Positions 1 through 64,000 of a DNA stretch of 64,000 bases are shown piece after piece; positions within the stretch are counted from its first letter, which is position 1; each line of letters opens with the position of its first letter. The notes beneath the pieces were generated by a model. It saw nothing but the letters and a program-made list of their open reading frames with translations. It did no database searches and had not been told where the DNA came from. This DNA comes from Candidatus Saccharibacteria bacterium CPR2 (GTDB taxonomy: Bacteria; Patescibacteriota; Saccharimonadia; Saccharimonadales; QWHN01), in assembly GCA_021404905.1 (NCBI GenBank), contig QWHN01000001.1, forward strand, positions 130,162-194,161, read 5' to 3'. Both the position numbers and the translations under genes were made by a program.

Positions 1-927
1 GGCGCCCAGGGCAGTCACTCCTGCTGGAGTAAATGTACAGTTCGAAGAATTTGGAAGCGTGTTAATAGTGTAGCAATATGTCAGGTTACCCGCGCTTCCT
101 ACGAATGTGTTAGGCACGTCCCAATCAAAGGCGAATGAATTGGTTGTGTTACTAGTGGGTGAGGCGATTAGGTTAGTTGGTTCCGAAGGTGCACCGGAGG
201 TATTGATTTTTAACGCTGCTGTCACGTAACTTGTTGATACGTTGCCGGCGTTATCCCAGGTTCTAAAGTAGACGGTATTGATTCCTTCCGCCAAATTATC
301 ATAGTCTGGTGGATCTTGAGTTTGATAACTACCGTCATTCGTTAGCAAGTCGGTTTGGTCTTGGTTGCCATTGTGAGTATCCCCATACCATGGCGTACTT
401 GTACCGATTCGATATTGAAGGCCTTGTATTCCTGAGTTCGCGTCTGATGGAGCGTCTCCACCGCTCGTCGCCCAGGTCAGGGTCGCGCTTTTGGTGTTAA
501 TAAACCCAGATGGCGCGGTAATATACCCTGGGTTGCTTGGAACAGTGTTGTCAAACCTAAAGTAAAATTGAGCGCTAGAACCACTAAAGACATTACCAGC
601 GTTATCCATGGCTTTAATATTCAAATAATATGGGGTGCTCGAAGACGTCATGGCCGTTTGGATATAGCCCGAAACAACCGTGTCGATATTAGTCGGGGAA
701 ACCAGGAATTGGCAATGTCCGCCTGTGTACACTGGACTCGTGCCCAAAATGCCTTTTGTAGTTATGGGATCAGCCGTATCGGTTTGACCTAGATATAAAC
801 AATAGCCTTTTATCCCAGACCCGGCATCAGAACCCGCCGTCCATGAAAAATAAGGAGATGAGCCGTTAGTCCAAGCGTTTTGGCTCAAAGACGCTCCTCC
901 GTTGCTTTTCTTAACGTTACTCGCTGG
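1..927 (-). CDS. Partial ORF (309 codons, open to the window edge) encoding FN3/Ig-like repeat surface-protein sequence. It is either the frame-shifted continuation of the 885..4385 protein or a translationally coupled downstream gene starting at TTG 888.
   Basis: My own minus-strand translation, frame with codon starts at 927, 924 and so on: PASNVKKSNGGASLSQNAWTNGSSPYFSWTAGSDAGSGIKGYCLYLGQ...NTVPSNPGYITAPSG...ATLTWATSGG...SGIQGLQYRIG...PSEPTNLIASPTSNTTNSFAFDWDVP. There is no stop from 927 down to 1. The ORF track omits it because it has no in-window stop. A TAG at 930-928 closes the frame upstream. Confidence 0.6.
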
Positions 928-3900
928 CTACCATTTCCCTGCAAGACTGCCTGCCATTTAATGCCATAAAACGTCACCGGAAATGTCGGGATATTCGTGT
1001 TTATGGTACTAACTGAGTTTGAATCGCTATACGAAGAAGATGTTGCCCACGAGCTACCATTCCAATATTTCCAGGTTGTACCGCCGTCATCTGAGAGACG
1101 ATAAGTTATTGTACCGCCATTGGTAGTTTCGCTATCCCCGAACGTATCCCAACTGGCAACACCTTGCGTGCGCACAGCAGTCCCCAGAGTCACACCTTGG
1201 GCAGAAGTACTATATGGGGTTGTTTGGAAAGATGACCGAACATTGTCGCTAATCCTTATTTCATCCAGCAATCCTTGGAAATATCCGCGCGCTTTGCCTT
1301 GTTCTCGTCCTCCCCAGCTTGCGCCAACATATAAAGCCTTTGTGCTATCAGGCATTGTTAAGGAAGCGCTTTGCGAACCTACTTCACTACCGTCAATATA
1401 TATTTTCATGGTCGATCCATTATAAGTCGCGCCGATATGATGCCAATTGGTGTCAAAACTGGCGGTAGAGGATTGTACGAATCCATTATTGCCCCAAGAC
1501 CAAATTGATGGATCTTCAGTATTACCACTGTTACCATTACCAACGTAGAGCTTGCCTTTATATACGCTCAAGGCTTTGACCTCTTCGACATTCCCATCCC
1601 ACCCATTATTTAGCGTGTCGCCACCGATTTGTGTCCAGTCGTCAGTACCATTAAACTCCCATAGCTCCCCGTCGCCGTTTGGCGTATAACCCAATCCAGC
1701 GTAGAGTTTGCCATTATAAACGGTCATTGTTGGAATATATTCATAGGTGCCTGAACTCCAACTGCTGTTAACAGAGCTGGCGCCACCGCCAATTAGTTCC
1801 CACGTGCTACCATCATAAGTCCAAACTTCGGCATCACCGGCAGCATCACCTAAACCAACAACTAGCTTATCTCCAAAGTTTGTCATTGTCCGAATCGTTT
1901 CGTAATTGGTATTCCAGCTAGAAGAAACTGCATCGCCACCAACTTTTGTCCAGGCGGTTCCGCTACCGCTCCACTCCCATACTTCCGATTCGTTGGTTGT
2001 AACTCCTAGCCCAGCGTAGAGTTTTCCGTTATATACTGCCATAGACTGAACTCTATCAAATCCGGATGCGCCCCAGTTATCAGCGTTCAGTCCACCAATT
2101 TGAGTCCAGGCGGTTCCGCTACCGCTCCACTCCCATACTTCAGCGTCTCCAGCTCCTGTGCCAAGTCCAGCGTATAACTTTCCATCCATTACTGACATTG
2201 AAAGTACCATTTCATGAGTTGATGTGCCCCAGTTCCCACTTGAAGTGCCACCAATTTGAGTCCAGGTAGAGCCATCCCATTCCCAAACCTCACCATCACC
2301 AGCCGGGGTATAGCCAAGCCCCACGTAAAGCTTACCCCCTAAACTTGCCATGGAACTGACAGATTCGTAAGTAAATGCCGACCAGCTGGAATTAACACCT
2401 TGGCCACCAACAAGCTCCCAGTTGGAGCCATCAAAACGCCAAACCATGGCGTTTCCGGCCACGGTATAGCCCGTACCCGCGTAAAGATAGTCTCCAACCC
2501 ATTGCATTACTTCTAAGCTTTGCAGGTTATAACAACACCAGCTTTTATTCACGCCATTTCCACCCAAACGCGTCCAAGCCGATCCATTCCAGCTCCACAT
2601 TTGGCCAGTTCCTGCCGAATCGTAAGTACCGGCATAAACGGTCGTGCCATCATTGACCATTGTAAAGACGACGTCCCCTTCATTGGTGCTCCAACTGGAA
2701 TTAGATCCATCACCGCCCACTTTAGCCCAGCTTGATCCATTCCAACTCCAAACCTCACCATCACCATTACCGCTACCTAAACCCGCGTATATGTTTGTAC
2801 CGTCAGAAGCAATAGACTTAACATATTCATATGTACTAGCCGCCCACCCACTATTTAAACCATCACCCCCTATTTGCGACCAAGAAGGTGAGCTGGCGCA
2901 ATTAGTGCAACGATATATATCGGCGTCGTAGTCAGTACTTGTATTATTGTCACCCACACCTGCGTATAAGTACGTTCCATCGTGATATAAGCTTCTTACC
3001 ATTTCTAAGTTAGCGCCAAAACCACTGCCACTATCGGCCACTTTTGTCCAGGTAGATCCATTCCAGCGCCAGACTTCGGCTTCGCCAGCCGTGATGCCCA
3101 AACCTACGTATAGATTTGTGCCATCATTGGCCATCGAGTAAACATAATCGTAATTTGTCATCCACGCCGTGGTGTCACCACCAATCTTGGTCCAGGAACT
3201 ACCATTCCATCGCCATACCTCAGCGTCATTGGCACTAGCTCCTAAGCCCGCGTAAAGATTGCCTCCAAAATAATCCAAAGAGTAAACGCCCTCGTGCGTA
3301 CCAATACCCCACTGTGCGGGCGTTGCGGTGTCACCGCCAATTTTACTCCAGCTGCCGCTTGTAAATTTCCAGACTTCGGCGTCACCAGTTCCAGTACCCA
3401 AGCCCGCATAGATGTTAGTGCCGTCAGTCTCTAGGCTGAGTACATACTCATGCTCGCCAGACCAACTACTGTTTACCCCATCACCACCAACCTTACTCCA
3501 GCTACCACTACTGAATTTCCAGACTTCAGCGTCTTTTGTCCCAACACCTAGGCCCGCGTAAACGTCAGAACCCATCACTACAGATGAAGCAACTGCCGTC
3601 ATGCCATCCCAGTTCCAGCTATTATTTACGTCATCACCAGCCGCTTTGGTCCACCCACTAGCTGAACTATTTGCTAGTTCATAGGTTACTTTACCGGTTT
3701 CGTTATCAAAATAAAGCTGATAATCGCCCTTGTCGACAATGGTTTGTCGTTGAGTGTGTGAGCCGGCAGAAAAAGACGAATCAAATTTTGCCCAGCCTTC
3801 AATGGTGTTGTTTTGAGAAAGAGATAATGAAGCCGAATCCGGCACTGATATCTTTGATGTTGTCCCGTTTAGACTAAGCCCGTTATTAAGGTTGCCCGCT

Positions 3901-4385
3901 TGCCAGTTTTGACTGGTTACTGTGCCGTCGTTATTATTGCTTGAAGCATCATCGACAGGCGTGCCACTGGATTCATCCAGGTGATAAAGTGCCATAGTGT
4001 TGGTGTCTGATGTATAGTTTTGCGCTTTTAAGCGTGCTACTGTTCCAGATGCTTCCACCCCCGAGTCAAAACTATAATTTCCAGGAGTAGAAAAATCCCA
4101 GTTATCGTTTAAGTCTCCGGCAAACACGCCTTTCATGTTTGACAACAATACCGCGCCAATAATTAACAAATAAATTCCGAGAGTACCAAAATGAACATGT
4201 TTGTGATAATCCCAGTTGTGCCACCAGTTGTACCACTGCCATTTGTCCATAAATCGTTCATGATGCTTGCCAGCCGCATGCCAGTGTACTTTTTTTAAAT
4301 GGGGATGTACAAATACAGAAGCTGTCATTAGCCACTTTTTAATATTTGCTATGACTTGATCAAAAACTAAACCAAGTTGCCCCAT
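885..4385 (-). CDS. Giant membrane-anchored surface protein. It has a Trp/His-rich N-terminus, one TM helix, a LamG-like domain, about 14 beta-propeller-type repeats and a second LamG-like domain.
   Basis: 1166-aa ORF. TM segment FGTLGIYLLIIGAVLLSNM. About 14 repeats of 50-55 aa with the signature YAGLG..GDAEVW.W.GS.W..IGGDG.N..W. The C-terminal WHHIGATYNGSTMKIYIDG...GLLDEIRISDNVRS is typical of the concanavalin/LamG (Laminin_G_3) fold. Confidence 0.85.
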   Translation of the reverse strand: MGQLGLVFDQVIANIKKWLMTASVFVHPHLKKVHWHAAGKHHERFMDKWQWYNWWHNWDYHKHVHFGTLGIYLLIIGAVLLSNMKGVFAGDLNDNWDFSTPGNYSFDSGVEASGTVARLKAQNYTSDTNTMALYHLDESSGTPVDDASSNNNDGTVTSQNWQAGNLNNGLSLNGTTSKISVPDSASLSLSQNNTIEGWAKFDSSFSAGSHTQRQTIVDKGDYQLYFDNETGKVTYELANSSASGWTKAAGDDVNNSWNWDGMTAVASSVVMGSDVYAGLGVGTKDAEVWKFSSGSWSKVGGDGVNSSWSGEHEYVLSLETDGTNIYAGLGTGTGDAEVWKFTSGSWSKIGGDTATPAQWGIGTHEGVYSLDYFGGNLYAGLGASANDAEVWRWNGSSWTKIGGDTTAWMTNYDYVYSMANDGTNLYVGLGITAGEAEVWRWNGSTWTKVADSGSGFGANLEMVRSLYHDGTYLYAGVGDNNTSTDYDADIYRCTNCASSPSWSQIGGDGLNSGWAASTYEYVKSIASDGTNIYAGLGSGNGDGEVWSWNGSSWAKVGGDGSNSSWSTNEGDVVFTMVNDGTTVYAGTYDSAGTGQMWSWNGSAWTRLGGNGVNKSWCCYNLQSLEVMQWVGDYLYAGTGYTVAGNAMVWRFDGSNWELVGGQGVNSSWSAFTYESVSSMASLGGKLYVGLGYTPAGDGEVWEWDGSTWTQIGGTSSGNWGTSTHEMVLSMSVMDGKLYAGLGTGAGDAEVWEWSGSGTAWTQIGGLNADNWGASGFDRVQSMAVYNGKLYAGLGVTTNESEVWEWSGSGTAWTKVGGDAVSSSWNTNYETIRTMTNFGDKLVVGLGDAAGDAEVWTYDGSTWELIGGGASSVNSSWSSGTYEYIPTMTVYNGKLYAGLGYTPNGDGELWEFNGTDDWTQIGGDTLNNGWDGNVEEVKALSVYKGKLYVGNGNSGNTEDPSIWSWGNNGFVQSSTASFDTNWHHIGATYNGSTMKIYIDGSEVGSQSASLTMPDSTKALYVGASWGGREQGKARGYFQGLLDEIRISDNVRSSFQTTPYSTSAQGVTLGTAVRTQGVASWDTFGDSETTNGGTITYRLSDDGGTTWKYWNGSSWATSSSYSDSNSVSTINTNIPTFPVTFYGIKWQAVLQGNGSQRVTLRKATEERL

Positions 4386-11925: not shown

Positions 11926-12465
11926 CTAGCTGACAGTGGGTTGGGGTGGTTTAGGAGCCTGGGGAGTCTGAGGTGTATTTGTCATGTTAGAATTTATGGG
12001 AGGTTGATCACCAGATTGTGTTCCAAGTTGATATTTAGCATTTCCAAATCCCAAAATTGCATATCCAATAAAGCTAAATATTGTTAAACCTAAAATACCA
12101 AACACCTCACTTTTACCAAATGCTTTTGCAATATCTATAGAAACTAGGACTATCGCTACCAAATTAACTAATGGGATAAACATCAATAAGAACCAAAGAA
12201 TATCTCTCCCTGATATTTTTACAAGAATATACTGATTATAAATAGGGATAATTGCAGCCCAACCAGGCTGGCCAGCCTTCTCAAATACTTTCCACATTGC
12301 TATAACAGCTACAATGCCGACAGCAAGCCAAAAAAACAGCCAAATACCACTAAAGATTAGTATCCCTCCAATTACGCTATCATCCACACTAACATCACTG
12401 GTGTCCACTCTATATGATGTGTTTGTGTTGACTTGCGCTACCCAATTTAATAATGACATATTCAA
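11926..12465 (-). CDS. Membrane protein (DUF5684-like)
   Basis: 179 aa. PGWAAIIPIYNQYILVKISGRDILWFLLMFIPLVNLV is typical of that family (from memory). Pro/Gln-rich C-terminal tail. Confidence 0.55.
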   Translation of the reverse strand: MNMSLLNWVAQVNTNTSYRVDTSDVSVDDSVIGGILIFSGIWLFFWLAVGIVAVIAMWKVFEKAGQPGWAAIIPIYNQYILVKISGRDILWFLLMFIPLVNLVAIVLVSIDIAKAFGKSEVFGILGLTIFSFIGYAILGFGNAKYQLGTQSGDQPPINSNMTNTPQTPQAPKPPQPTVS

Positions 12466-12540
12466 ACTCCATTAATGCTGTAATTATAACATTATGCTTA
12501 AGGTTTGAATAACCTGTACTTCTATCGTCAAAATTTCACC

Positions 12541-12600
12541 GTTAATCTTTACTGATTCCTAGTTGCTATTTTCTAGTTGCCAATTCCCAGTTCCCGTACC
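12541..12600. repeat. Solo block of the dispersed 7-8-nt word repeat (reverse orientation)
   Basis: The reverse complement of ctgattcctagttgctattttctagttgccaattcccagttcc reads GGAACTGG GAATTGG CAACTAG AAAATAG CAACTAG GAATCAG. The same word family occurs at 59.7-60.0 kb and 63.1/63.6 kb. Confidence 0.6.
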
Positions 12601-12605
12601 GGGCT

Positions 12606-13235
12606 TCAACTAACCGAACTAATTGCCCACGCCAGAAATAAAATCATGCCAGCGATTGCGGATACATCAACGACAACATTCTTCCATTTCGGCAAAAGCT
12701 CAGGATCATGATGCTTTTGATCTATAATCTCATACACCCATAGCCCCGCCAAAGCAAAAATCCCCAGATAAATAACTCCTGCCAGCCAACTTTTAGATAG
12801 AAACAGTATTGATAACGCCATAATCACAATTATTGACTCGAGCGTAATGGCGCTATAAAGACTCAATTTTTGGCTATGAAACAGCCCTAAGTTTTGATCA
12901 AAATCATAATCGGGTTCGTGAACTCCCGGAAGCTCGGAGCGAATTTTAATAGCAATTTTCGACACTAGATGCCCGCCGTTTTCTTTTATTACTTGCATTG
13001 CGTCCTCAATAAATTCGCTTGCTAAAACTTGGTCGCCTCGAGCTTCATGCAAAATTGCCTGGAATTCATACAAGCAAGACTTTTTCGCCGAAGACACCCT
13101 ATGTTTGTTGTGGCTTGCAAATCCATCCAGCCAGGTTTGGTAATCCCTGATTTGTTGCGCGCTAATATCACGACCCATAAATTTAGAGTCAAATTCAATT
13201 AGTTTATCTTCGAGTTGATTATCAACTTCTTTCAT
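12606..13235 (-). CDS. Hypothetical membrane protein (soluble N-terminal domain plus about 3 C-terminal TM helices)
   Basis: 209-aa ORF in the same direction as its neighbours, with hydrophobic C-terminal helices. Confidence 0.55.
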   Translation of the reverse strand: MKEVDNQLEDKLIEFDSKFMGRDISAQQIRDYQTWLDGFASHNKHRVSSAKKSCLYEFQAILHEARGDQVLASEFIEDAMQVIKENGGHLVSKIAIKIRSELPGVHEPDYDFDQNLGLFHSQKLSLYSAITLESIIVIMALSILFLSKSWLAGVIYLGIFALAGLWVYEIIDQKHHDPELLPKWKNVVVDVSAIAGMILFLAWAISSVS

Positions 13236-44887: not shown

Positions 44888-46885
44888 ATGAGCTCTGATA
44901 AAGCTAGTATAAGTATCCTTAGTAGACTAATGGAATTGGTTAAAAAGTTTGGAAAAAGCGTTTGGGTTTTTCCTGCACTTCTTCTTATAGTAGTAGTGGG
45001 ATTAACTTTATTTGAGGTTAACGGAAGCTCTATTGGCGCTTTTCGTAAAATTTTGTACGGGAATATTAGCGAGGATCCTTATTTAATAGCTAATGAAGCA
45101 AGACCTATCCGCTCAGATGAATGGCTCGTTAATACTCAGGAAACTATAGCCCAGTCTCAAAATGACTTTGTTCGAATCAACAAAAATATAGGTGAGGGGC
45201 AGGATATGTCCACGGTAGACGTTCCTTATAAAGACTGGAGCACGATATTTAAGCCGCATAACTTGGGTTTTCTTGTTCTGTCTCTAAACAAAGCATTCGC
45301 GCTTAAATGGTGGTTAATGGGCTATTTACTAATTATTAGTTGTTACTTTTTTGTTTTAGCTTTGCTGCCCAGAAAAAGACTATTGGCTAGCTTACTGGCT
45401 TTGTCTTTATTTTTTAGCACTTTTGTGCAGTGGTGGTATGCCTATGGAACAATCGGTCCACTTTATTATTCACTTTTTATTGCCGCAAGTATTATATATC
45501 TATGTCAGCAAGACAATAAAAAGAAAAAACTTTTTTGGTCAGTTTTGTTGGCTTATTTGATAACTTGTTTTGCTCTGGTACTTTACCCACCATTTCAGAT
45601 TGGCTGTGGCTTGGTTCTCGCTGCATTCTTAATAGGCTACGGGATACAAAATTACCCCAAATGGGGCAAGAAAAAATTCTTACAAAATACCCTATTTTTA
45701 ATGTCCGCCGGAATTGTTGGTTTGGCTATTGTTGGTTTATTTATATTTACGCGCCTGGAGGTTGTCAGAACCATTAACAACACTGCCTACCCAGGACAAC
45801 GTTCTGTGAATAGTGGCACATTTTTCCCGTTACACTTTATGTCCTCGCATCTTGGTTATCAATTTTTATCTGAAAAAAATACTGCTAAATACTTAATAGA
45901 TGACAAGAATCCTTCAAATCAAAGCGAAACGTCTAATTTCCTTCTTTTAATACCGTTTTTGATACTGCCGTCTTTATTTTTGATCTACCAAAGTTATAAA
46001 AATAATCGCAAAGTTGATTGGCCTCTTTTGGGACTTTTGGCATTATTTATAATCTTTTCATTACACCTTTTTGCCCCATCATTTACCCCACTAAATAAGT
46101 TTATTATGTTGAACAAAGTTGGCGACGCTCGCCTTTTGCTGGGCATGGGACTATTAAATTTTTTCGCAGTAACTTTATTTATCCATAATTACTCTAAAAC
46201 AAAGCGCACTCTACCATCTGTTCTAATCGTGATTTATTCTTTGAGTATATTAACTATCGAGTTGCTGCTAAGTCTACGCGCCTACCAAAATTTTGATGGT
46301 TTTATTTCTTTAAAAAGGGCTATTTTGTTTTCTTTGCCGCTGCCTTTAGTCACTTATCTTTTGCTTAAAAAGTATTTTGTGTGGGCGATAGGAGTTTATT
46401 TAGCTTTTTCGGTTTTCATATCAATTCATGTTAATCCCTTATACAAAGGCCTGGATGTGATAACTAAAGACCCTCTAAGTACTGCGGTAAAAGATTTGGG
46501 TATAAAATCCGACAAAAAATGGATAAGTGATGGCGGATATTTGGAAAATATTGCGTCTATTAATGGCGAACCGTCTATAGCAGGAACTTATTTATACCCT
46601 CAGTTTAACCTCTGGTCAAATATTCCTGGTGTGCAAGAATCTATTTATAACCGATATGCTCATGTTGGCTTTCAATTCCTCGATAATACTACTGGCCCTA
46701 CGCAATTGACTTTAGTTACCTACGATAGTTTTGTTGTCAAAACTCCGGTTTGCGGAGAGTATCTACAAAAACTAGATGTAGGTTTTGTAATCAGTTCTGC
46801 TGTATTAAAAAACACCTGTGCCAAATTACAAAAAACAATTTCTTATCCACTTAACACACTCTATGTGTATGAATTACAGTTCTAG
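44888..46885 (+). CDS. Large polytopic membrane protein, paralog 1 (possible GT-C-type glycosyltransferase/polymerase)
   Basis: 665 aa with 12 or more TM helices. It has a first-loop acidic motif IRSDEWLVNTQ, a conserved YPGQRSVNSG loop and a C-terminal soluble domain. Confidence 0.75.
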   Translation: MSSDKASISILSRLMELVKKFGKSVWVFPALLLIVVVGLTLFEVNGSSIGAFRKILYGNISEDPYLIANEARPIRSDEWLVNTQETIAQSQNDFVRINKNIGEGQDMSTVDVPYKDWSTIFKPHNLGFLVLSLNKAFALKWWLMGYLLIISCYFFVLALLPRKRLLASLLALSLFFSTFVQWWYAYGTIGPLYYSLFIAASIIYLCQQDNKKKKLFWSVLLAYLITCFALVLYPPFQIGCGLVLAAFLIGYGIQNYPKWGKKKFLQNTLFLMSAGIVGLAIVGLFIFTRLEVVRTINNTAYPGQRSVNSGTFFPLHFMSSHLGYQFLSEKNTAKYLIDDKNPSNQSETSNFLLLIPFLILPSLFLIYQSYKNNRKVDWPLLGLLALFIIFSLHLFAPSFTPLNKFIMLNKVGDARLLLGMGLLNFFAVTLFIHNYSKTKRTLPSVLIVIYSLSILTIELLLSLRAYQNFDGFISLKRAILFSLPLPLVTYLLLKKYFVWAIGVYLAFSVFISIHVNPLYKGLDVITKDPLSTAVKDLGIKSDKKWISDGGYLENIASINGEPSIAGTYLYPQFNLWSNIPGVQESIYNRYAHVGFQFLDNTTGPTQLTLVTYDSFVVKTPVCGEYLQKLDVGFVISSAVLKNTCAKLQKTISYPLNTLYVYELQF

Positions 46886-49588: not shown

Positions 49589-51313
49589 ATGTTTAAGCGT
49601 TTTCACTACCTGATTGCAGCTTTGATAGTAAACATAGCGCTGTTTGTTTCCTTCACACAAGTCAACGCAGTTTCAGGCAGTGAATTTCAAGCTGGTCGAA
49701 TTATAGATGATAGCAAGTTTTTTAGCGGACCTACTATGTCTGTAAATGACATTCAGCTTTTCTTAAATGCGAAAGTGCCCGTATGTGACACGTGGGGCAC
49801 TCAGCCATATGCGGGCACAACTAGAGCAGCATACGCGGCGAGCCGTGGTGTATCAACACCTTTTATTTGTCTAAAAGACTATCACATGAGTATACCCTAT
49901 AAGGCACCTGAATCCGGGCTTTGTAACGGCATAACCGCGTCCGGAGCATTCGCTTCTGAAGTGATTTCTTGGGTAGCTCAAAGTTGCGGTATAAACCCAC
50001 AAGTATTGATAGTTCTTCTTCAAAAAGAACAGTCACTAATAACTGATGACTGGCCATGGCCAATACAATACCGTAGTGCTACGGGATACGGTTGCCCAGA
50101 TGGTGCTCCGTGTGACGAAGAATATTACGGTTTTTTCAACCAAGTTTATAATGCTGCCAGGCAATTCAAACGATATGGTAGAGATTCTTACTTATTTAAT
50201 TATCATGCAAACGCGAATAATTATATTCAATACAACCCAAACGCTGGATGTGGTGGATCAGTAGTGTATATACAAAATCAAGCAACCGCAGGTCTTTATA
50301 ATTACACGCCCTACCAACCAAATGCTGCGGCATTAAACAACTTATATGGTACGGGTGATGGCTGTAGCGCCTATGGTAATCGTAACTTCTGGCGTATTTT
50401 TAACGATTGGTTTGGCAGTACATTTGGTCCTCCAGATTACTCTTGTAAAAACAGTGTTAATGTAAGTGGAGCATCAACCGGTGAAAAAGTCATTCCAAAC
50501 CAATTTAATCATTCAGGTTACGCGACTTTTTCTCTAGTTCTTCCCAATAATACTGGCTCGGCATGTATGGAAGCACATACTTGGCATCCTAACCTACAAT
50601 CGTGGATTACGAATGTTGCCACAAATCACCCCTCTGTAAACCCGGCAGATGGCGAAGTAGTATCTGCTAATGTGCATGGCAGTACAAAATCTGAGCTCAA
50701 CTTCATCAAATACCGCAACACTGGCAGTGGACGCATTGAAATACACACGTGGGACGATTCATATCAAAGATGGGTTTACAATATTGCCACAAATCATCCG
50801 GCTATTGATCCCGCAGACGGTGAAGTAATTGCTGGAGATATGACGGGCGACGGACGTGACGAATTAATCTTCATCAAATACCGCAACACTGGCAGTGGAC
50901 GCATTGAAATACACACGTGGACGCCAGATAAACAAGGTTGGATTTCCAATGTTGCTACTAATTTACCGGCTATTGATCCCGCAGACGGACGAGTCATAGC
51001 AGCCAATCTTTATGGCGATAATCGTGACGAATTAATCTTCATCAAATACCGCAACACTGGCAGTGGACGCATTGAAATACACACGTGGGCTCCTGGTCAA
51101 CAAACATGGCTCAGCAATGTTGCGACTAATCATACAACGGTGAGTACCGATGATAATGAAGTTATATCTGCCAATATATTCGACAATGAAGCCGATGAAT
51201 TAATCTTCATCAAATACCGCAACACTGGCAGTGGACGCATTGAAATACACACGTGGGCTCCTGGTCAACAAACATGGCTCATGAATGCAGTTACAAACAT
51301 GAGTAGCTTTTAA
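49589..51313 (+). CDS. Secreted protein: N-terminal putative cell-wall/glycan-binding or hydrolase-like domain plus five FG-GAP/propeller-like 56-aa repeats
   Basis: Signal-like N-terminus. INPQVLIVLLQKEQSLITD resembles lysin/glucosaminidase-associated segments (weak). The C-terminal repeats end in ELIFIKYRNTGSGRIEIHTW. Confidence 0.7.
   Translation: MFKRFHYLIAALIVNIALFVSFTQVNAVSGSEFQAGRIIDDSKFFSGPTMSVNDIQLFLNAKVPVCDTWGTQPYAGTTRAAYAASRGVSTPFICLKDYHMSIPYKAPESGLCNGITASGAFASEVISWVAQSCGINPQVLIVLLQKEQSLITDDWPWPIQYRSATGYGCPDGAPCDEEYYGFFNQVYNAARQFKRYGRDSYLFNYHANANNYIQYNPNAGCGGSVVYIQNQATAGLYNYTPYQPNAAALNNLYGTGDGCSAYGNRNFWRIFNDWFGSTFGPPDYSCKNSVNVSGASTGEKVIPNQFNHSGYATFSLVLPNNTGSACMEAHTWHPNLQSWITNVATNHPSVNPADGEVVSANVHGSTKSELNFIKYRNTGSGRIEIHTWDDSYQRWVYNIATNHPAIDPADGEVIAGDMTGDGRDELIFIKYRNTGSGRIEIHTWTPDKQGWISNVATNLPAIDPADGRVIAANLYGDNRDELIFIKYRNTGSGRIEIHTWAPGQQTWLSNVATNHTTVSTDDNEVISANIFDNEADELIFIKYRNTGSGRIEIHTWAPGQQTWLMNAVTNMSSF
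50701..51280 (+). repeat. Intragenic tandem repeat, period exactly 168 nt, with an identical 52-nt core in four copies
   Basis: CTTCATCAAATACCGCAACACTGGCAGTGGACGCATTGAAATACACACGTGG occurs at 50701, 50869, 51037 and 51205. Copies 3 and 4 additionally share GCTCCTGGTCAACAAACATGGCTC. Confidence 0.9.
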
Positions 51314-58253: not shown

Positions 58254-58736
58254 TTATTTATCATTTCCTTCAGGAAGCAGCTCTGGCTTTATTACAATGT
58301 GTCTTTCCCTGCCCTCACCCATGGATTCGGTTGTGACTCCACCTATATCTGATATAGTTCGGTGCACTATGCGCCTGTCGGCTGAGTTCATGGGCCTTAG
58401 TCTCATCTCTTCTTCGCTGCTCTTCACGTCTTCGGCCCATTTCTCCACTTTTCGGGCCAATCTTTCGTTGCGATGCTGTTTGTAATCGGCAACATCAATA
58501 TTAACCCGAGTTATCTTATGGTCATTGTTCTTCAGGGCCGAGCCAACTAGAAATTGGATAGATCTTAGTGTTTCACCTCTTTGGCCTATTAAGAAACCAT
58601 TCAGATGAGTAGAGGGTATGGATAATTCTATTATCTCCTCATCTTCGTCGCAGGTTGCTTTGACATCTATATTAAGACCAAAAAATGTTAGCAAATCTTC
58701 CAGATATTGCTTTGCGTAAGAAATTGGGTCTTGCAT
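58254..58736 (-). CDS. jag: Jag/KhpB-type RNA-binding protein (KH + R3H)
   Basis: FLIGQRGETLRSIQ (KH GXXG) and ADRRIVHRTISD (R3H); conserved position downstream of yidC. Confidence 0.88.
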   Translation of the reverse strand: MQDPISYAKQYLEDLLTFFGLNIDVKATCDEDEEIIELSIPSTHLNGFLIGQRGETLRSIQFLVGSALKNNDHKITRVNIDVADYKQHRNERLARKVEKWAEDVKSSEEEMRLRPMNSADRRIVHRTISDIGGVTTESMGEGRERHIVIKPELLPEGNDK

Positions 58737-58739
58737 GGT

Positions 58740-59669
58740 TCATCCTTTCTTTTTCTTAGAGGATGAGCGCTTTTTCTTTTTAGTTTTTTGATTTTTGGGT
58801 TTGGATGTATCGTCAGAGCTTTGATTCGCTTTATTGTTGTCGCTGTTAGCTTTAAGTTTTTCCATATCTTCGACATCTTTATTCAAAATAACTTTTTGCT
58901 GCCAGACGGCTACTGCAGAGCTTGCCGTCCAGTATAGGGCCAAGGAACCCGGAAATGTAGCAGCAAAGAATCCTGACAACAATGGAAAAAAGAAGCGCAT
59001 GTTTCTACCCATAGCCGCATTGATTTCTGATTGAGAGTTTTTTTTGCCCTGGGACTCTTCTTTTAATATTTGCCTAAGTGTCTTTGAGTCTTTTTGCTCC
59101 GGCATTAGCTGCTTGGACTGATAAAACTGCAGGATTACAGCGCCAATCGCAAGAACAAGTAATGGAATATATACGCTTCCGTTACTGATTGCGGTTTTTG
59201 ATAGATCGATAAAGCCAAAAAGGGTTTGCTGAAACTCAACGTTTCCGTTGATTATGTCCGGCAAAATACCTAGTTTCTTAATGAATCCGTAGGTAAAGTC
59301 CGTAAAGTGGCTTGGGTCGTTAGTGATTTTCCGCATTCCCTGAAACAGGCCGATAAGTATTGGGATTTGTACAAACAAAATCCCAATCGAGCTAAATGGA
59401 TTGATTTCTCGTTCTTTATAAAGCTCCATTAGAAGTTGAGATTCTTTTTGTTTATCACCTTTGCTCTTTTGCTTTATTTTTTGTATTTCAGGCTGAAGTT
59501 CACGCATAGCCCGACTGTGGTGAAGTTGTTTTTTAACAAGCGGCCACATTAGTACCCTTATTAATATTGTAAAGATAATAATTGCCAACCCAAAGTCATG
59601 CCCGGGAATCACGGCATAAACAAAAACGAGCAAATTAAAAATAGGTTGGACTATAAAAGTTTCCCACAT
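58740..59669 (-). CDS. yidC: Membrane protein insertase YidC (short form) with a Lys-rich C-terminal tail
   Basis: GLAIIIFTILIRVLMWPLVKKQ...ELQPEIQKIKQK...EINPFSS. C-terminal KPKNQKTKKKKRSSSKKKKG. Confidence 0.9.
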   Translation of the reverse strand: MWETFIVQPIFNLLVFVYAVIPGHDFGLAIIIFTILIRVLMWPLVKKQLHHSRAMRELQPEIQKIKQKSKGDKQKESQLLMELYKEREINPFSSIGILFVQIPILIGLFQGMRKITNDPSHFTDFTYGFIKKLGILPDIINGNVEFQQTLFGFIDLSKTAISNGSVYIPLLVLAIGAVILQFYQSKQLMPEQKDSKTLRQILKEESQGKKNSQSEINAAMGRNMRFFFPLLSGFFAATFPGSLALYWTASSAVAVWQQKVILNKDVEDMEKLKANSDNNKANQSSDDTSKPKNQKTKKKKRSSSKKKKG

Positions 59670-59690
59670 ACTGAAATATATAATAACGCA

Positions 59691-60030
59691 TAAACTGAAA
59701 ACTGAAAATTAGCAATCAGCAACTCAACTAGCAATTGGGAATTGGAAAATAGGAACTAGTTAGAAGTTATAAAGTTCCTAAAGCTATCAAGCCCATAAAG
59801 ACTTACCATTTCTCATTTGCCACTTCTCAATTATCAATTAACATTCATTGGTTCAATAAAACATTTATCATTATTATATTAAAGTATCTCATTAGTTAAA
59901 TGACTAAATAAATGGCAACTGGTAAATGATAAATAGGAACTAGGAATTGGCAATTAGGAAATAGAAAATAGTATATTTTTAAAAACTAATTACTAGTTTC
60001 TAATTGCTGTTTTCTAATTTCTATACTCTA
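59691..60030. repeat. Non-coding gap filled with blocks of the 7-8-nt word repeat in both orientations (imperfect long hairpins)
   Basis: Forward blocks lie at 59691-59768 and 59921-59975, for example AGGAACTAG GAATTGG CAATTAG GAAATAG AAAATAG. Reverse blocks lie at 59808-59840 and 59981-60026. Stops occur in all six frames. Confidence 0.75.
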
Positions 60031-60036
60031 TAAGAT

Positions 60037-60174
60037 CTAGTGTGTTAGTCGAACACGGCTTTTTAGTTTTCGCGCCTTAATAACGGCCCGGCCTGCTTTT
60101 GTAGCCATGCGCGCCCTAAAACCGTGCACCTTTTTCTTGTGTCTGACTTTTGGTTGAAACGTTCTCTTTGGCAT
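60037..60174 (-). CDS. rpmH: 50S ribosomal protein L34
   Basis: My translation is [45 protein letters not shown] (45 aa, TAG stop at 60037-60039). It is below the ORF-track cutoff and sits in the canonical position upstream of dnaA on the opposite strand. Confidence 0.93.
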
Positions 60175-60234: not shown

Positions 60235-60353
60235 TTTTCCACAGTAATCAACAAGGTTTCCACATAATAACTGGGGTGGCTTGTTTCTGTGTACAAATTT
60301 ACCCTTGTTGTTTTTTGCTGATTCACAAAAACACATTTTTGGGTTGTGGAAAA
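60235..60353. promoter_or_regulatory. DnaA-box-like cluster upstream of dnaA
   Basis: Compared with TTATCCACA: TTTTCCACA at 60235-60243 (1 mismatch), GTTTCCACA at 60256-60264 (2), TGATTCACA at 60319-60327 (2) and TGTGGAAAA at 60345-60353 (reverse box, 1). Confidence 0.5.
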
Positions 60354-60407: not shown

Positions 60408-61778
60408 ATGGATAACGCCGTTTGGCATACTGTTTTGGGTGAAATTGAGTTGACTGTGTCCAGAGCGACTTTTGCGACTTGGTTTAAAAATACGCACTTT
60501 TTAGGATACGATGGCGGTAATGTTCGTGTTGGTGTGCCTAATGTTTTTGCTAAACACCAGCTGGAAGTAAAGTTTAATCAGCAAATAGTCGGAATCTTAA
60601 AAAAGAATGGGGTTAAATTTGAGTCAGTCGAGTATATAATTCATTCTTTACCTTCAAAGAAATCAACCGGTTCAAGTTATTTAAAAAGTAATTCAACTTT
60701 AGCTTCCACATTATCTTCAAGTAATAAATATTCCCTCGCTTCAAGCAAGCTAACAAAAAAAACTCCTCACACGCTTAATAGAAGATATACTTTTGATGAG
60801 TTTATTGTTGGGTCCGGCAATGATTTGGCTTATACGGCCTGCCAAGCAATTGTTAAATATCCGGGTACAAAATATAATCCCCTTTTTGTTTATGGTGGAG
60901 TCGGCCTTGGAAAGACACATTTAATCCAGGCCGTGGGTAATGCGGTCTTGGACAAAAACCCTGACGCGAAAGTCTATTACATTAGTACGGAGACATTCGT
61001 TAATGAGTTTTTGGAAAGTATTAGATTTAAGAAAAAATCATTTTCTGGAAAATACCGAGATGCTGACGTTTTGATAGTTGACGACATGCAGTTTATTACA
61101 GGAAAAGAAAAAACCCAGGAAGAATTTTTCCATACTTTTAACGCCCTGCATCAAGCAAACAAGCAAATCATTATTTCCAGCGATAAACCGCCAAAGGCAA
61201 TCCCTACTTTAACAGAAAGGTTACGATCCAGGTTTGAGTGGGGAATGACTGTTGATATACAACCGCCGGATTTTGAAACTAGAGTAGCTATTTTACAAAC
61301 TAAGGCAAATGTAAGTGGCGTTACTTTACCGCCGGACTGTGTAGAGTATTTAGCGACTCATATCCAAACAAATATCAGGGAGCTAGAGGGCGGGTTAAAC
61401 CAACTACTAGCATATTGTGAGATGCGCGGTATAGAGCCAGATCTTCAGATCGCCATGGGGTTAATTGAAAACACCAGGTCACGACCTCGACACATTACTC
61501 CGAAACAAGTTATAGAGAGAACCGCTAGACATTTTCAGCTTGATCTTGATGATATTTTGGGGCCAAAGAGAGATAAAGATATTGTTCTGCCGCGTCAAAT
61601 CGCAATGTATCTGCTTCGAAGCGAATTACACCTCAGTTTTCCTAAGGTGGCTAAAGAACTGGGGAGAAAAGACCACACAACCGCTATACATTCGGTTGAC
61701 AAAATAGAAAAAAATATAAGACTAGATCAAATAATTAGACAGCATGTAAATGAGATTAGGGATAGAATTTATGCTTAA
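60408..61778 (+). CDS. dnaA: Chromosomal replication initiator DnaA
   Basis: YTFDEFIVGSGNDLAY, Walker A GGVGLGKTHL, the box VII region, and C-terminal DNA-binding domain DHTTAIHSVDKI. Confidence 0.96.
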   Translation: MDNAVWHTVLGEIELTVSRATFATWFKNTHFLGYDGGNVRVGVPNVFAKHQLEVKFNQQIVGILKKNGVKFESVEYIIHSLPSKKSTGSSYLKSNSTLASTLSSSNKYSLASSKLTKKTPHTLNRRYTFDEFIVGSGNDLAYTACQAIVKYPGTKYNPLFVYGGVGLGKTHLIQAVGNAVLDKNPDAKVYYISTETFVNEFLESIRFKKKSFSGKYRDADVLIVDDMQFITGKEKTQEEFFHTFNALHQANKQIIISSDKPPKAIPTLTERLRSRFEWGMTVDIQPPDFETRVAILQTKANVSGVTLPPDCVEYLATHIQTNIRELEGGLNQLLAYCEMRGIEPDLQIAMGLIENTRSRPRHITPKQVIERTARHFQLDLDDILGPKRDKDIVLPRQIAMYLLRSELHLSFPKVAKELGRKDHTTAIHSVDKIEKNIRLDQIIRQHVNEIRDRIYA

Positions 61779-62033
61779 TAGTTGTGTGAAACTTGTTGAG
61801 AGTTTGTGTATAAGTTTTAAGGATTTTAAAAAGTTTGGAATTTTAAAATTTATATGTGGAATAAACATGGTTTATTCACAAACTTATTCAGGACTTTTAA
61901 ATAGTTTTTTCTCAGCTTTTTCACAAAAGAATAAAGATTTTTCAGATGTAATTTTTAGTAATCCACAAAATTTACAAAAACTACTATTACTACTACGAAG
62001 TTTTAATTTAATTAATATTTATGGAGAAAATTT
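61779..62033. promoter_or_regulatory. Candidate oriC (dnaA-dnaN intergenic): DnaA boxes plus an AT-rich unwinding stretch
   Basis: TGTGTATAA at 61805-61813 (1 mismatch to TGTGGATAA), TGTGGAATA at 61855-61863 (2), TTATTCACA at 61872-61880 (1) and TAATCCACA at 61959-61967 (1). An AT-only run lies at about 62001-62020. Confidence 0.55.
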
Positions 62034-63137
62034 ATGAAACTTTCCACCACGCAAGAAAACCTTTCAAAAGCACTTAATATTGTCTGTAGAGTCGCTGGCA
62101 GCAAAACTACTTTACCGATATTAGCGAATATAATGCTTAAAACCGTAAAAAACAGGCTTCAAATATCAGCAACTAACTTAGAAGTTGCTATCACTCAATT
62201 TATTGGCGGAAAGATTGACAGTAATGGTTCTATAACCGTACCAGCAAGGTTGATGAGTGACTTTGTGTCTAGTCTTCCTAAAGATACAATCAATATGGAG
62301 CTTGAAAAAAACAAACTACATATAAAAACCAAACAATACCAATCAACCATTAATGGAATAGCGGCTGATGATTTCCCTTCTATTCCAAAACTCCAAAATA
62401 AAAATACTATAAAAATTCCAATTTCAGATTTAAAAAAGGCTCTGCAACAGGTTATATTTACAGCTTCAAATGACGATTCCAGACCGGTACTAACGGGAGT
62501 GTATTTCTCCTCACAAAATGGAAGGCTGTTTATTACAGCAACAGACAGCTATAGGTTAGCGGAAAAACAAATAATAAAAATCCAAGAAAACTTATCTTGC
62601 ATCGTGCCTGTGAGTTCACTTCAACACCTACTTCGAATTTTAAGTGAAGACATAGAGGAAAATGAAGTAAATATTTCTTACGACCAAGCACAAATCCTGT
62701 TTACCTTGCAAGACATAGAGCTTGTTTCAAGATTAATAGACGGGCAATATCCAGATTATCAGAGGCTTATACCATCTAAAAGTGACGTCAACATTACATT
62801 AAACAGAGAGGATTTTATAAACATTACCAAAGTCGCGAGTTTATTTGCAAAAGAGAGCGCAGGCAGTATAACGATATCTGTTTCGGAAGAAGACCAAGAA
62901 GTCTCTATAACATCAGTGGCTTCACAAGTCGGTGAAAATATATCCAGAGCAGAAGCAAAAATTAAAGGTAGCGGTGAGGTTACACTAAACTCGAGGTATT
63001 TACTGGAGGCTTTGAACGCCATTAATGACGATAAAGTAACATTTAGGTTTAGCGGAAAGATTAGCCCGTGCGTGCTAACCCCAGCTGATTCAAAAAACTC
63101 AGACTATCTTCACATTATAATGCCTCTGAAAAGCTAG
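62034..63137 (+). CDS. dnaN: DNA polymerase III beta sliding clamp
   Basis: 367 aa. MKLSTTQENLSKALNIV...LPILANIMLK...DSYRLAE...LIDGQYPDYQRLIP. Confidence 0.95.
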   Translation: MKLSTTQENLSKALNIVCRVAGSKTTLPILANIMLKTVKNRLQISATNLEVAITQFIGGKIDSNGSITVPARLMSDFVSSLPKDTINMELEKNKLHIKTKQYQSTINGIAADDFPSIPKLQNKNTIKIPISDLKKALQQVIFTASNDDSRPVLTGVYFSSQNGRLFITATDSYRLAEKQIIKIQENLSCIVPVSSLQHLLRILSEDIEENEVNISYDQAQILFTLQDIELVSRLIDGQYPDYQRLIPSKSDVNITLNREDFINITKVASLFAKESAGSITISVSEEDQEVSITSVASQVGENISRAEAKIKGSGEVTLNSRYLLEALNAINDDKVTFRFSGKISPCVLTPADSKNSDYLHIIMPLKS

Positions 63138-63140
63138 GCC

Positions 63141-63180
63141 ACCAGGAGTTAGGAATTAGCAATTAGAAAACAGGAAATAA
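63141..63180. repeat. Word-repeat block (forward) flanking the four-helix-bundle gene on the left
   Basis: ACCAGGAGTTAGGAATTAGCAATTAGAAAACAGGAAATAA. Confidence 0.65.
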
Positions 63181-63184
63181 TAAA

Positions 63185-63571
63185 ATTTTAAATAATAAAA
63201 TAACATCTTTTAAAGATCTCGAGACATGGAAGCAGGCGCATAATCTTGTTAAATTAATATATGAGATCACAGATAATTTTAATAGGGCTGATATGTTTGG
63301 AATTACATCTCAAATGCAAAGATCTTCTCTCTCAGTATCTTCAAATATAGCCGAGGGGTTTGGCCGCCAATCCAAAAAAGACACTCTACACTTTTATATA
63401 ATGGCAAGAGGGTCATTAACAGAGCTACAAAATCAGCTGATTGTTTGTAGAGACACAAATAAAATTTCTACCGAACAATATGTCGAACTGGAGAAACAAT
63501 CTGTTCTTACTCATAAACTATTACATGGATTAATAAGATCAACAGACAGGAACAATACTAGTGATAACTAA
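63185..63571 (+). CDS. Four-helix-bundle protein (23S rRNA intervening-sequence protein family); no ATG at the family-typical N-terminus
   Basis: The track ORF (63293..63571) starts mid-domain. The frame is open from 63167 and encodes ..ITSFKDLETWKQAHNLVKLIYEITDNFNRADMFGITSQMQRSSLSVSSNIAEGFGR.., the full family pattern. The only plausible start is ATT 63185 (AGGA SD 8 nt upstream) or ATA 63200. Confidence 0.6.
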   Translation: MLNNKITSFKDLETWKQAHNLVKLIYEITDNFNRADMFGITSQMQRSSLSVSSNIAEGFGRQSKKDTLHFYIMARGSLTELQNQLIVCRDTNKISTEQYVELEKQSVLTHKLLHGLIRSTDRNNTSDN

Positions 63572-63604
63572 TTTCTTTTTCCTAGTTCCTGTTTCCTAGT
63601 AGGA
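63572..63604. repeat. Word-repeat block (reverse) flanking the four-helix-bundle gene on the right
   Basis: The reverse complement of TTTCTTTTTCCTAGTTCCTGTTTCCTAGTAGGA reads ..CTAGGAAACAGGAACTAGGAAAAAGAAA. It forms an imperfect inverted repeat with 63141-63180, with about two-thirds of positions matching by eye. Confidence 0.6.
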
Positions 63605-63607
63605 ATA

Positions 63608-64000
63608 ATGTATTCATCTCTTCGTCTTCAAAACTTTAGGTCATATAAAGACTACTCTTTAGAGTTGGGGCCTGGTGTAAATATAATTGTTGGGCCAAAT
63701 GCCAGTGGAAAAACCAATCTGCTAGAGGCGCTTTACGTTATTTCAACCGGAAGATCCTTTCGTGTAAAAGATGAGGATCTAATAAATTTCAATTCTGATT
63801 GGTCTAGGCTTGACAGTCGTTACGGAAGCACAGAGAGGGTCATTAAAATTGCAAGAAACAACGGTCGCCTTAACAAAACACTTACGATAGATGATTTACC
63901 AAACAATAAGATAAAACCAACCAATCTTATACCAATAACTCTGTTTGAGCCTCAAGATCTAAGGTTGTTTGGCGATCCCCCCGAAGCTCGTCGGAATTAC
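63608..64000 (+). CDS. recF: DNA replication and repair protein RecF (partial; continues past the window)
   Basis: My translation is MYSSLRLQNFRSYKDYSLELGPGVNIIVGPNASGKTNLLEALYVISTGRSFR..., a RecF N-terminus with Walker A. It is in frame to position 64000. Confidence 0.9.
   Translation, partial: MYSSLRLQNFRSYKDYSLELGPGVNIIVGPNASGKTNLLEALYVISTGRSFRVKDEDLINFNSDWSRLDSRYGSTERVIKIARNNGRLNKTLTIDDLPNNKIKPTNLIPITLFEPQDLRLFGDPPEARRNY

Follow-up and report, generated by a model that had tools for sequence, protein, structure and literature searches.

Tandem heptamer arrays flank an intervening-sequence protein gene and fill the rpmH-yidC spacer near the replication origin of a Saccharimonadales bacterium

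Heptamer arrays and their setting

The DNA analysed here, a stretch of 64,000 nt referred to throughout as the window, comes from a member of the Saccharimonadales (Candidatus Saccharibacteria, CPR) according to its DnaN homologues, and its last 5 kb correspond to the neighbourhood of the replication origin. In this region, jag/khpB (58254-58736), yidC (58740-59669, with its start codon at 59669) and rpmH (60037-60174) are encoded on the minus strand, whereas the plus strand encodes dnaA (60408-61778), dnaN (62034-63137, with its stop at 63137), a gene of the PF05635 family (from 63170 or 63185 to 63571) and recF (from 63608). Ten matches to the DnaA-box-like motif TTWTNCACA were found in the window, a number that is not above chance, and only their clustering is notable, as five of the ten lie in the rpmH-dnaA and dnaA-dnaN spacers (60235-60353 and 61805-61925), an arrangement that fits a bipartite oriC. 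A 95-aa ORF (61750-62037) that overlaps the end of dnaA and spans the dnaA-dnaN spacer is called in all the relatives described below; its product has no Pfam match and is 47% identical to that of the closest relative (L085), but 13-16% identical to those of L086 and L087, two relatives with about 60% DnaN identity. As the protein is not conserved, this ORF probably represents stop-free origin DNA and no gene.

Two other features were observed far from the origin. A tandem repeat of 168 nt (50701-51277; 3.4 copies, 79% matches) lies within a 574-aa ORF (49589-51313); it apparently encodes a 56-aa protein module several times over, for which Pfam gave no convincing match. At positions 1-4000, the GC content is 47-49% versus 36-44% elsewhere, and this stretch, which coincides with a 1166-aa ORF (885-4385, minus strand) carrying a Laminin_G_3/ConA-like lectin domain, may be a foreign or surface-protein gene.

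A first-pass annotation of the window had described seven blocks of back-to-back words of 7-8 nt, called here A to G, that were considered to be neither CRISPR-like, nor coding, nor a simple microsatellite. All seven are present where they had been placed, and all were also found by a detector that makes no use of the word and requires a lag-7 self-match of at least 18/28 that is at least 5 above those at lags 1-6 and 8-10. The regions detected were 12540-12600, 59674-59727, 59723-59772, 59801-59849, 59908-59982, 59978-60039, 63138-63186 and 63562-63598, with a noise of 0.5 matches per shuffled window. One extra region (45311-45352) lies within a coding ORF (44888-46885) at noise level and was set aside as doubtful. 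The unit is 7 nt long and was written as VAAHYRG with an optional extra base, while the alternative length of 8 nt had to be abandoned, as words of that length use one and the same G in two neighbouring units. The three negative descriptions were right: the units follow each other head to tail with no spacers, which is not the arrangement of a CRISPR, and the blocks are neither coding nor a plain microsatellite.

Words are in clear excess in the rpmH-yidC spacer, with 18 of them inside 59670-60036 versus 2.1 expected (maximum of 7 in 1000 shuffles). Over the whole window, the single word VAAHYRG is not enriched (422 versus 396 ± 18), and therefore the non-random signal is its tandem arrangement: runs of at least three words were observed five times, against a mean of 0.02 (maximum of 1) in 200 shuffles that preserve dinucleotides, and runs of at least four words were observed four times, against none in the shuffles. 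Tandem Repeats Finder reported period-7 arrays at 59692-59708, 59934-59964, 59986-60023 and 63144-63166 and a period-14 array at 12555-12592, and no further array of either period in the whole window. A search for promoters and terminators gave none that coincides with any block, and the GC-rich stem plus T run of an intrinsic terminator was not found in them.

Block A (12540-12600, minus strand) is a solo array, G-rich on the minus strand, where its units read GGAACTGG GAATTGG CAACTAG AAAATAG CAACTAG GAATCAG. It begins 5 nt past the stop of a 209-aa ORF (12606-13235, minus strand) and lies upstream of a DUF5684 gene (11926-12465, minus strand). An inverted-repeat search gave no complementary partner for it, and its fold is no better than that of shuffles (z -1.6). 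The other blocks are arranged in pairs (B/C, D/E and F/G), in each of which a G-rich array precedes a C-rich one, an order that is the same on either strand.

Blocks B to E fill the 367-nt spacer between rpmH and yidC, where no ORF of at least 30 aa was found on the coding strand, and they make up two ORF-less hairpins, B/C and D/E. Block B (59674-59772, plus strand) is a G-rich-type array in two parts, with AAACTGA units at 59688-59726 followed by CAACTAG CAATTGG GAATTGG AAAATAG GAACTAG; it abuts the yidC start codon, and its first 80 nt or so are conserved in L085. Its weak partner, block C (59801-59849, minus strand, of C-rich type on the plus strand), pairs also with the left end of block D (59803-59834 with 59908-59939, 75%), and the B/C fold is weak (z -1.45). 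Block D (59908-59982, plus strand) and block E (59978-60036, minus strand, ending at the rpmH stop) are the G-rich and C-rich arms of the second hairpin, and the complementarity first noticed between them was confirmed at 75% over 40 nt, with a 12-nt AT loop between the arms. The accompanying suggestion that G-U pairs would rescue several mismatches in RNA applies to plus-strand RNA only and fails on the minus strand, where the flanking genes lie. In agreement with this, D/E is predicted to fold at -28.7 kcal/mol as plus-strand RNA (z -5.2) and at -19.5 kcal/mol as minus-strand RNA (z -2.7), so that the better fold is that of the strand which does not encode rpmH and yidC. An Rfam scan of the window at the gathering threshold gave a tRNA only and no rRNA, and the matches near the spacer were sub-threshold ones to plant miRNA precursors, as for a generic hairpin.

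A second heptamer family (AAAGTTN/AAAGCTN) is present at 59757-59795, in the loop between B and C. The same family is also the arm unit of the different cassette found in L085 (7860-7890 and 11130-11160 of that contig), which hints at remnants of a cassette type or at exchange between cassette types. Independent public short-read assemblies of the organism (L001, L003 and L004) begin at 60003, within block E, and a contig carrying a related cassette (L094) ends in the 3' array of that cassette. Contig ends inside the arrays indicate that heptamer arrays break de Bruijn assemblies, and the same breaks have been noted for Elizabethkingia (MacGregor 2015; PMC4679880).

The cassette between dnaN and recF and its turnover in relatives

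The third pair of arrays brackets a gene. Block F (63138-63186, plus strand), the G-rich 5' arm, begins 1-4 nt past the dnaN stop, and block G (63560-63607, minus strand), the C-rich 3' arm, overlaps the stop of the enclosed gene and ends at the recF start codon, so that the unit fills the spacer exactly. The gene between the two arms encodes a four-helix bundle protein of the PF05635 family (23S rRNA intervening-sequence protein, IVP or S23p), with a Pfam match (E 3e-34) over profile positions 1-105 of 106 that starts at residue 10 of the translation begun at 63185; the closest solved structure is PDB 2GSC (E 6e-16). Arm F, the IVP gene and arm G constitute one complete element in the dnaN-recF spacer. 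The arms lie 389 nt apart and are complementary at 73% over 30 nt, and the MFE and centroid folds of 63130-63615 both have F paired with G; the fold of the whole 486-nt cassette is no better than that of shuffles (z -1.5).

The IVP gene has ACA at 63170, where a homologue of 80% identity (L094) has ATG, and its next in-frame ATG, GTG or TTG is the ATG at 63293, within helix 1 at residue 37 of the translation from 63185. The substitution has one of two causes: translation begins at a non-canonical codon, ATT at 63185 or a later ATA, or the start codon was lost very recently. The reading frame is nevertheless unbroken, and a dN/dS of 0.11 in the comparison with the L094 homologue indicates that the protein is under purifying selection. 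Neither in the window nor in the other loci examined does a recombinase or transposase adjoin the cassettes, no integrase was seen among the annotated neighbours of the cassettes, and no target-site duplication was seen at them.

A DnaN protein scan of metagenome contigs gave no relative, and relatives were obtained via a protein database and exact-sequence look-ups. In five of them, with 57-61% DnaN identity, the dnaN-recF spacer is 19-48 nt long and has no IVP gene, and no period-7 array was detected in their 54 kb of comparable base composition. As judged from the spacers compared, the F-IVP-G unit is an insertion relative to these five. The closest relative, L085, shows 81% identity to the window in DnaN and 77% in the N-terminal part of RecF, and it carries an IVP gene at the same dnaN-recF site, although its product is 43% identical to that of the window and its cassette uses a different heptamer (AAAGTTT/AAACTTT). 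As the window IVP is closer to many IVPs of other CPR phyla (50-64% identity) than to that of L085, this turnover at one site corresponds to replacement or independent insertion and not to vertical divergence. The short contig L094 has an orthologous cassette after dnaN, with an IVP that is 80% identical and arms of the same word family. The window and its relatives are not alike in the copy number of the array units.

The rpmH-yidC spacer also differs between relatives. In four of them, with about 60% DnaN identity, rnpA lies next to yidC, between rpmH and yidC where rpmH is called (L086, 3499-3849; L096, 2041-2385; L097, 1959-2303; L098, 2125-2472), whereas the window (59670-60036) and L085 have heptamer hairpins at this site instead of rnpA, blocks B to E occupying a gap of rnpA size. 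By tblastn, rnpA homologues were detected neither in the 64 kb of the window nor in 21 kb of L085.

Heptamer arms at IVP genes of other genomes

To assess the generality of this architecture, an IVP alignment was used to scan GTDB genomes, one for each species, and the best 80 loci were kept, with 83 analysable genes. Among these best 80 loci, period 7 was the strongest period in 78 of 83 upstream and 79 of 83 downstream flanks of the IVP genes, and control segments had no preferred period. The two arms form inverted repeats with a median of 31 nt at 84% identity, versus 12 nt with shuffled partners (83 genes), and their polarity is fixed, the upstream arm being G-rich (G 497 versus C 76 in the 83 cassettes). 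The heptamer itself varies, with 2.62 differences out of 7 between cassettes versus 1.15 out of 7 between the arms of one cassette. A weak but non-random relation was detected between IVP similarity and heptamer similarity (Spearman -0.20, matched by 0 of 500 permutations), heptamers being slightly more alike where the proteins are more alike, and the two closest homologues of the window IVP use the word family of the window. Of the 74 cases that could be assessed, 58 have the IVP gene in the same orientation as its two neighbours and none has it antisense to both, and the median distance from the upstream stop to the IVP gene is 39 nt, that is, just the array. Heptamer arms of fixed polarity around a gene in strict co-orientation with its host operon are therefore general across these 80 other genomes.

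In contrast to the argument made at first for D/E, the mismatches between the arms of the 83 cassettes had no G-U bias: they are mostly A/T transversions, with no excess of sense-strand G-U (56 sense-compatible versus 83 antisense-compatible), and the duplex energies of sense and antisense strands did not differ (p 0.54). Together with the strand preference of D/E, these results speak against selection on an RNA helix, or at least lend it no support, and they are compatible with a role at the DNA level or in protein binding.

Arrays were also found apart from IVP genes, with 96 of them in 379 kb of these loci, and array density near the IVP genes is about 26-fold above that in the rest of the loci. 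When adjacent arrays away from IVP genes form inverted pairs, the G-then-C order predominates as well (7 R-to-Y versus 1 Y-to-R), and ORF-less hairpins with the same polarity were found in at least 10 other genomes, so that hairpins like D/E are common in these genomes. Among the CPR loci (L023, 3569-3694; L053, 211-422 and 1549-1661), some carry much longer pure arrays, such as ATAACGC in about 16 copies, and in others several different heptamer families directly follow one another over a few hundred bases that contain no IVP gene.

On plasmids, IVP genes were encountered almost only in cyanobacteria and Riemerella, and arrays of period 6 or 7 adjoin the gene in five of six such loci, usually in inverted orientation and in direct orientation in one. 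In the latter, a Pseudanabaena plasmid (L091; NZ_CP112875.1, 46268-46627), the IVP gene has about 14 CTAAAAG units before it and about 10 CCAAAAG units behind it. In this plasmid and in one of Picosynechococcus (L092; NZ_CP016476.1), the IVP gene with its heptamer arrays is part of a cas operon, enclosed by cas6 and cas4 or by cas10 and cmr3.

Interpretation and comparison with known systems

The results above make it very probable that the blocks are heptamer arms of elements resembling the intervening sequences (IVSs) of 23S rRNA. The fuller proposition, that the arrays are the stems of IVS-type elements located outside rRNA and that these are cut by RNase III, we consider rather more probable than its negation, and for the cutting step itself, which is carried over by analogy, we see slightly less than an even chance. 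The interpretation given in the first-pass annotation was partly right. Of the three roles that it suggested, two fit the data, namely stems for RNase III-type processing and the termini of a small mobile cassette, as F and G bracket a PF05635 gene and pair around it, the unit is inserted relative to five relatives, and heptamers lie at the RNase III cut in Coxiella. The results speak neither for nor against the third, repeated protein-binding sites. The annotation had passed over the gene between F and G, the strictness of the 7-nt period, the fixed polarity of the arms and the gap of rnpA size.

In this proposal, the elements would be co-transcribed with their host operon, as suggested by the lack of a promoter or terminator of their own, and the strict co-orientation together with the absence of an array-tied promoter or terminator fits an IVS-type co-transcribed element. 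The arms would fold into an interrupted duplex of about 30-40 bp that RNase III may cut, as it does in the heptamer stem of the Coxiella IVS, and the outcome would be that the cistrons on both sides are separated and that the IVP message is released or inactivated. The hairpins without an ORF could derive from elements that once had it, or could be the same stem with no passenger. A possible rationale for the fixed polarity and the period of 7 is that, as 7 is coprime to 3, an array made of T, A and G only would offer stop codons, ATG and a purine-rich ribosome-binding sequence in each frame to anything that enters the element from either side. A signature motif of RNase III (ERLEFLGD-like) is absent from the 64 kb, an extent that says nothing for the whole genome.

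Several of these observations would also suit an element acting on DNA, in which the inverted arrays serve a mobile or recombining cassette as its ends or as its recognition sites, in analogy to REP/REPIN-RAYT or attC systems; we regard this as rather unlikely. It would account for the replacement of one cassette by another at one site between close relatives, for the unit type shared by the arms of a cassette, for the covariation of IVP and heptamer, including the word family common to the two closest homologues, and for the absence of the strand asymmetry that an RNA helix would be expected to leave, and the direct arrays of L091 speak for it too. The arrays would then be protein-bound, possibly by a pentameric IVP, and the ORF-less hairpins would be non-autonomous copies, to which we attach the same low probability, even if the abundance of arrays and hairpins away from IVP genes is in its favour. 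However, neither a recombinase or transposase adjoining the cassettes nor a target-site duplication was seen, the covariation might merely mirror common descent, and the absolute co-orientation with host operons (58 versus 0) points to a constraint at the level of expression; moreover, the IVP is a helical bundle of 120 aa for which no catalytic activity was found (PMC4990558, PMC10053308). Another possibility is that the arrays are binding sites in single-stranded RNA and that their pairing is incidental, as binders have been proposed for heptamers at start codons (MacGregor 2015; PMC4679880). The solo block A, the AAACTGA units of block B that abut the yidC start and the ends of arrays a few nt from start codons would agree with such sites, but the inverted arrays of the same unit placed 400 nt apart around IVP genes would be left unexplained, as would the fixed G-then-C polarity and the huge diversity of units between cassettes, and for this we find it quite improbable.

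That the arrays are functionless microsatellites produced by replication slippage and piling up in the AT-rich spacers of a reduced genome appears very improbable. The degenerate units, the copy numbers that vary between the window and its relatives and among Coxiella strains, and the assemblies that break in the arrays are what slippage could leave behind, but it is the tandem arrangement and not the single word that is enriched, array density is about 26-fold higher around a single gene family than in the rest of the loci, the arrays form inverted and unit-matched pairs with a fixed polarity, and relatives of comparable base composition have none. Finally, as blocks B to G flank dnaA and lie within 1-2 kb of the DnaA-box clusters, a function as DnaA-binding or unwinding repeats of the origin was considered. 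Since the boxes cluster in other spacers without overlap with the arrays, block A is 47 kb distant, IVP genes of 80 genomes have such arrays at their flanks in contexts unrelated to the origin and relatives with the same origin layout lack them, this idea is contradicted by the distribution of the arrays and was rejected as extremely improbable.

Returning to IVS-type elements outside rRNA, a broader and speculative extension, which we consider unlikely, would be that IVP genes and heptamer arrays form one very widespread self-propagating family present in CPR, Cyanobacteria, Bacteroidota and the IVSs of rRNA, whose pentameric protein may recognise its own arrays as DNA or RNA and promote their spread, exchange or maintenance; its non-autonomous progeny would then include the hairpins without an ORF as well as the classical STRR (short tandemly repeated repetitive) heptamers of cyanobacteria. 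Genes for PF05635 four-helix bundles are common, small and of unassigned function, and they turned up here in CPR, Cyanobacteria and Bacteroidota. Heptamer repeats of the STRR type have appeared in catalogues since 1990 and are not known to have been given a function, and we know of no settled mechanism for the spread of rRNA intervening sequences. The IVP gene lies almost always between inverted arrays of its own heptamer, with a fixed polarity and with turnover between close relatives, which links the rRNA IVSs, with their measured RNase III cut in a heptamer stem, to a far larger set of elements outside rRNA. Stem-loop elements of the IVS type and STRR-like heptamers were already known; apparently new here are the location in operon spacers, the ORF-less copies in place of rnpA and the near-universal heptamer architecture at IVP genes. 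For annotation, such spacers should not be taken for promoters, terminators or CRISPR, and they account for recurrent contig breaks in CPR assemblies.

The STRR repeats of heterocystous cyanobacteria, reportedly described by Mazel et al. in 1990, are dispersed, intergenic tandem heptamers that can often form hairpins between genes. They share with the arrays of the window the dispersed intergenic location and the 7-nt tandem unit, but differ in unit sequence (here VAAHYRG) and phylum, the window arrays having neither a cyanobacterial host nor the canonical units. No link between STRR repeats and IVP genes was found in the literature searched. REP/REPIN-RAYT systems consist of a gene flanked by inverted short repeats plus many dispersed, intergenic hairpin doublets without an ORF. 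In the cassettes, the flanked gene is PF05635 and there is no Y1 (IS200/IS605-like) transposase, and instead of the single palindrome of REP/REPIN there are tandem heptamer arrays with a unit that differs per cassette.

Intergenic direct repeats of the heptamer TAACTGA near start codons have been described in Beggiatoaceae, Cyanobacteria and Bacteroidetes, and no link to IVP genes was drawn (MacGregor 2015; PMC4679880). Like the arrays reported here, they are near start codons, are mixed with other heptamers and cause contig breaks (PMC4679880), but they are direct repeats of one unit with one inverted case, whereas here they form inverted pairs of many units and are tied to IVP genes. In the window, AAACTGA is present in only 2.4 copies at 59692-59708, on the strand opposite to yidC, and the other units differ. 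A further comparison concerns bAvd, the accessory protein of diversity-generating retroelements (DGRs), a homologous pentameric four-helix bundle, as PF05635 resembles Avd (2GSC versus 4DWL; PMC10053308). The Pfam match of bAvd to the window IVP is weak (E 4e-4, below the cut-off), and no reverse transcriptase, template repeat or variable repeat of DGR type was found near the IVP gene.

The closest resemblance is to the IVSs of 23S rRNA. In Coxiella burnetii, the stem-loop of the IVS carries an S23p (PF05635) ORF, whose ATG is directly preceded by GACAGAT heptamers in tandem, two or three of them depending on the strain, and the 5' cut by RNase III maps to the start of the first heptamer (PMC4990558). 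Excision of IVSs by RNase III is known for Coxiella, Leptospira and Salmonella (PMC4990558), and IVP ORFs are also found in rRNA insertions of CPR bacteria (PMC11270868). In the literature searched, whose coverage is incomplete, no general link between IVP genes and heptamer repeats was found beyond this observation in the single species Coxiella. As in the 23S rRNA IVSs of Coxiella and Leptospira, the F/G element has a PF05635 gene in the loop of a stem closed by terminal inverted repeats. Such repeats are present both in F/G (30 nt, 73%) and in D/E (40 nt, 75%), while the ORF is found in the loop of F/G only and not in those of B/C and D/E. Tandem heptamers adjoin the start of the ORF, as reported for Coxiella only. 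The stems are more degenerate (73-75%) than the near-perfect 28 bp of the 23S IVS, the window IVP is under purifying selection (dN/dS 0.11), in contrast to the Coxiella ORF, reported as decaying, and RNase III cleavage has been shown in the Coxiella repeat stem, whereas the elements described here are known from their sequence. Instead of being inserted in rRNA, they lie between dnaN and recF and between rpmH and yidC, and the sporadic and horizontally patchy distribution described for IVSs has its counterpart here in gain, loss and replacement between relatives.
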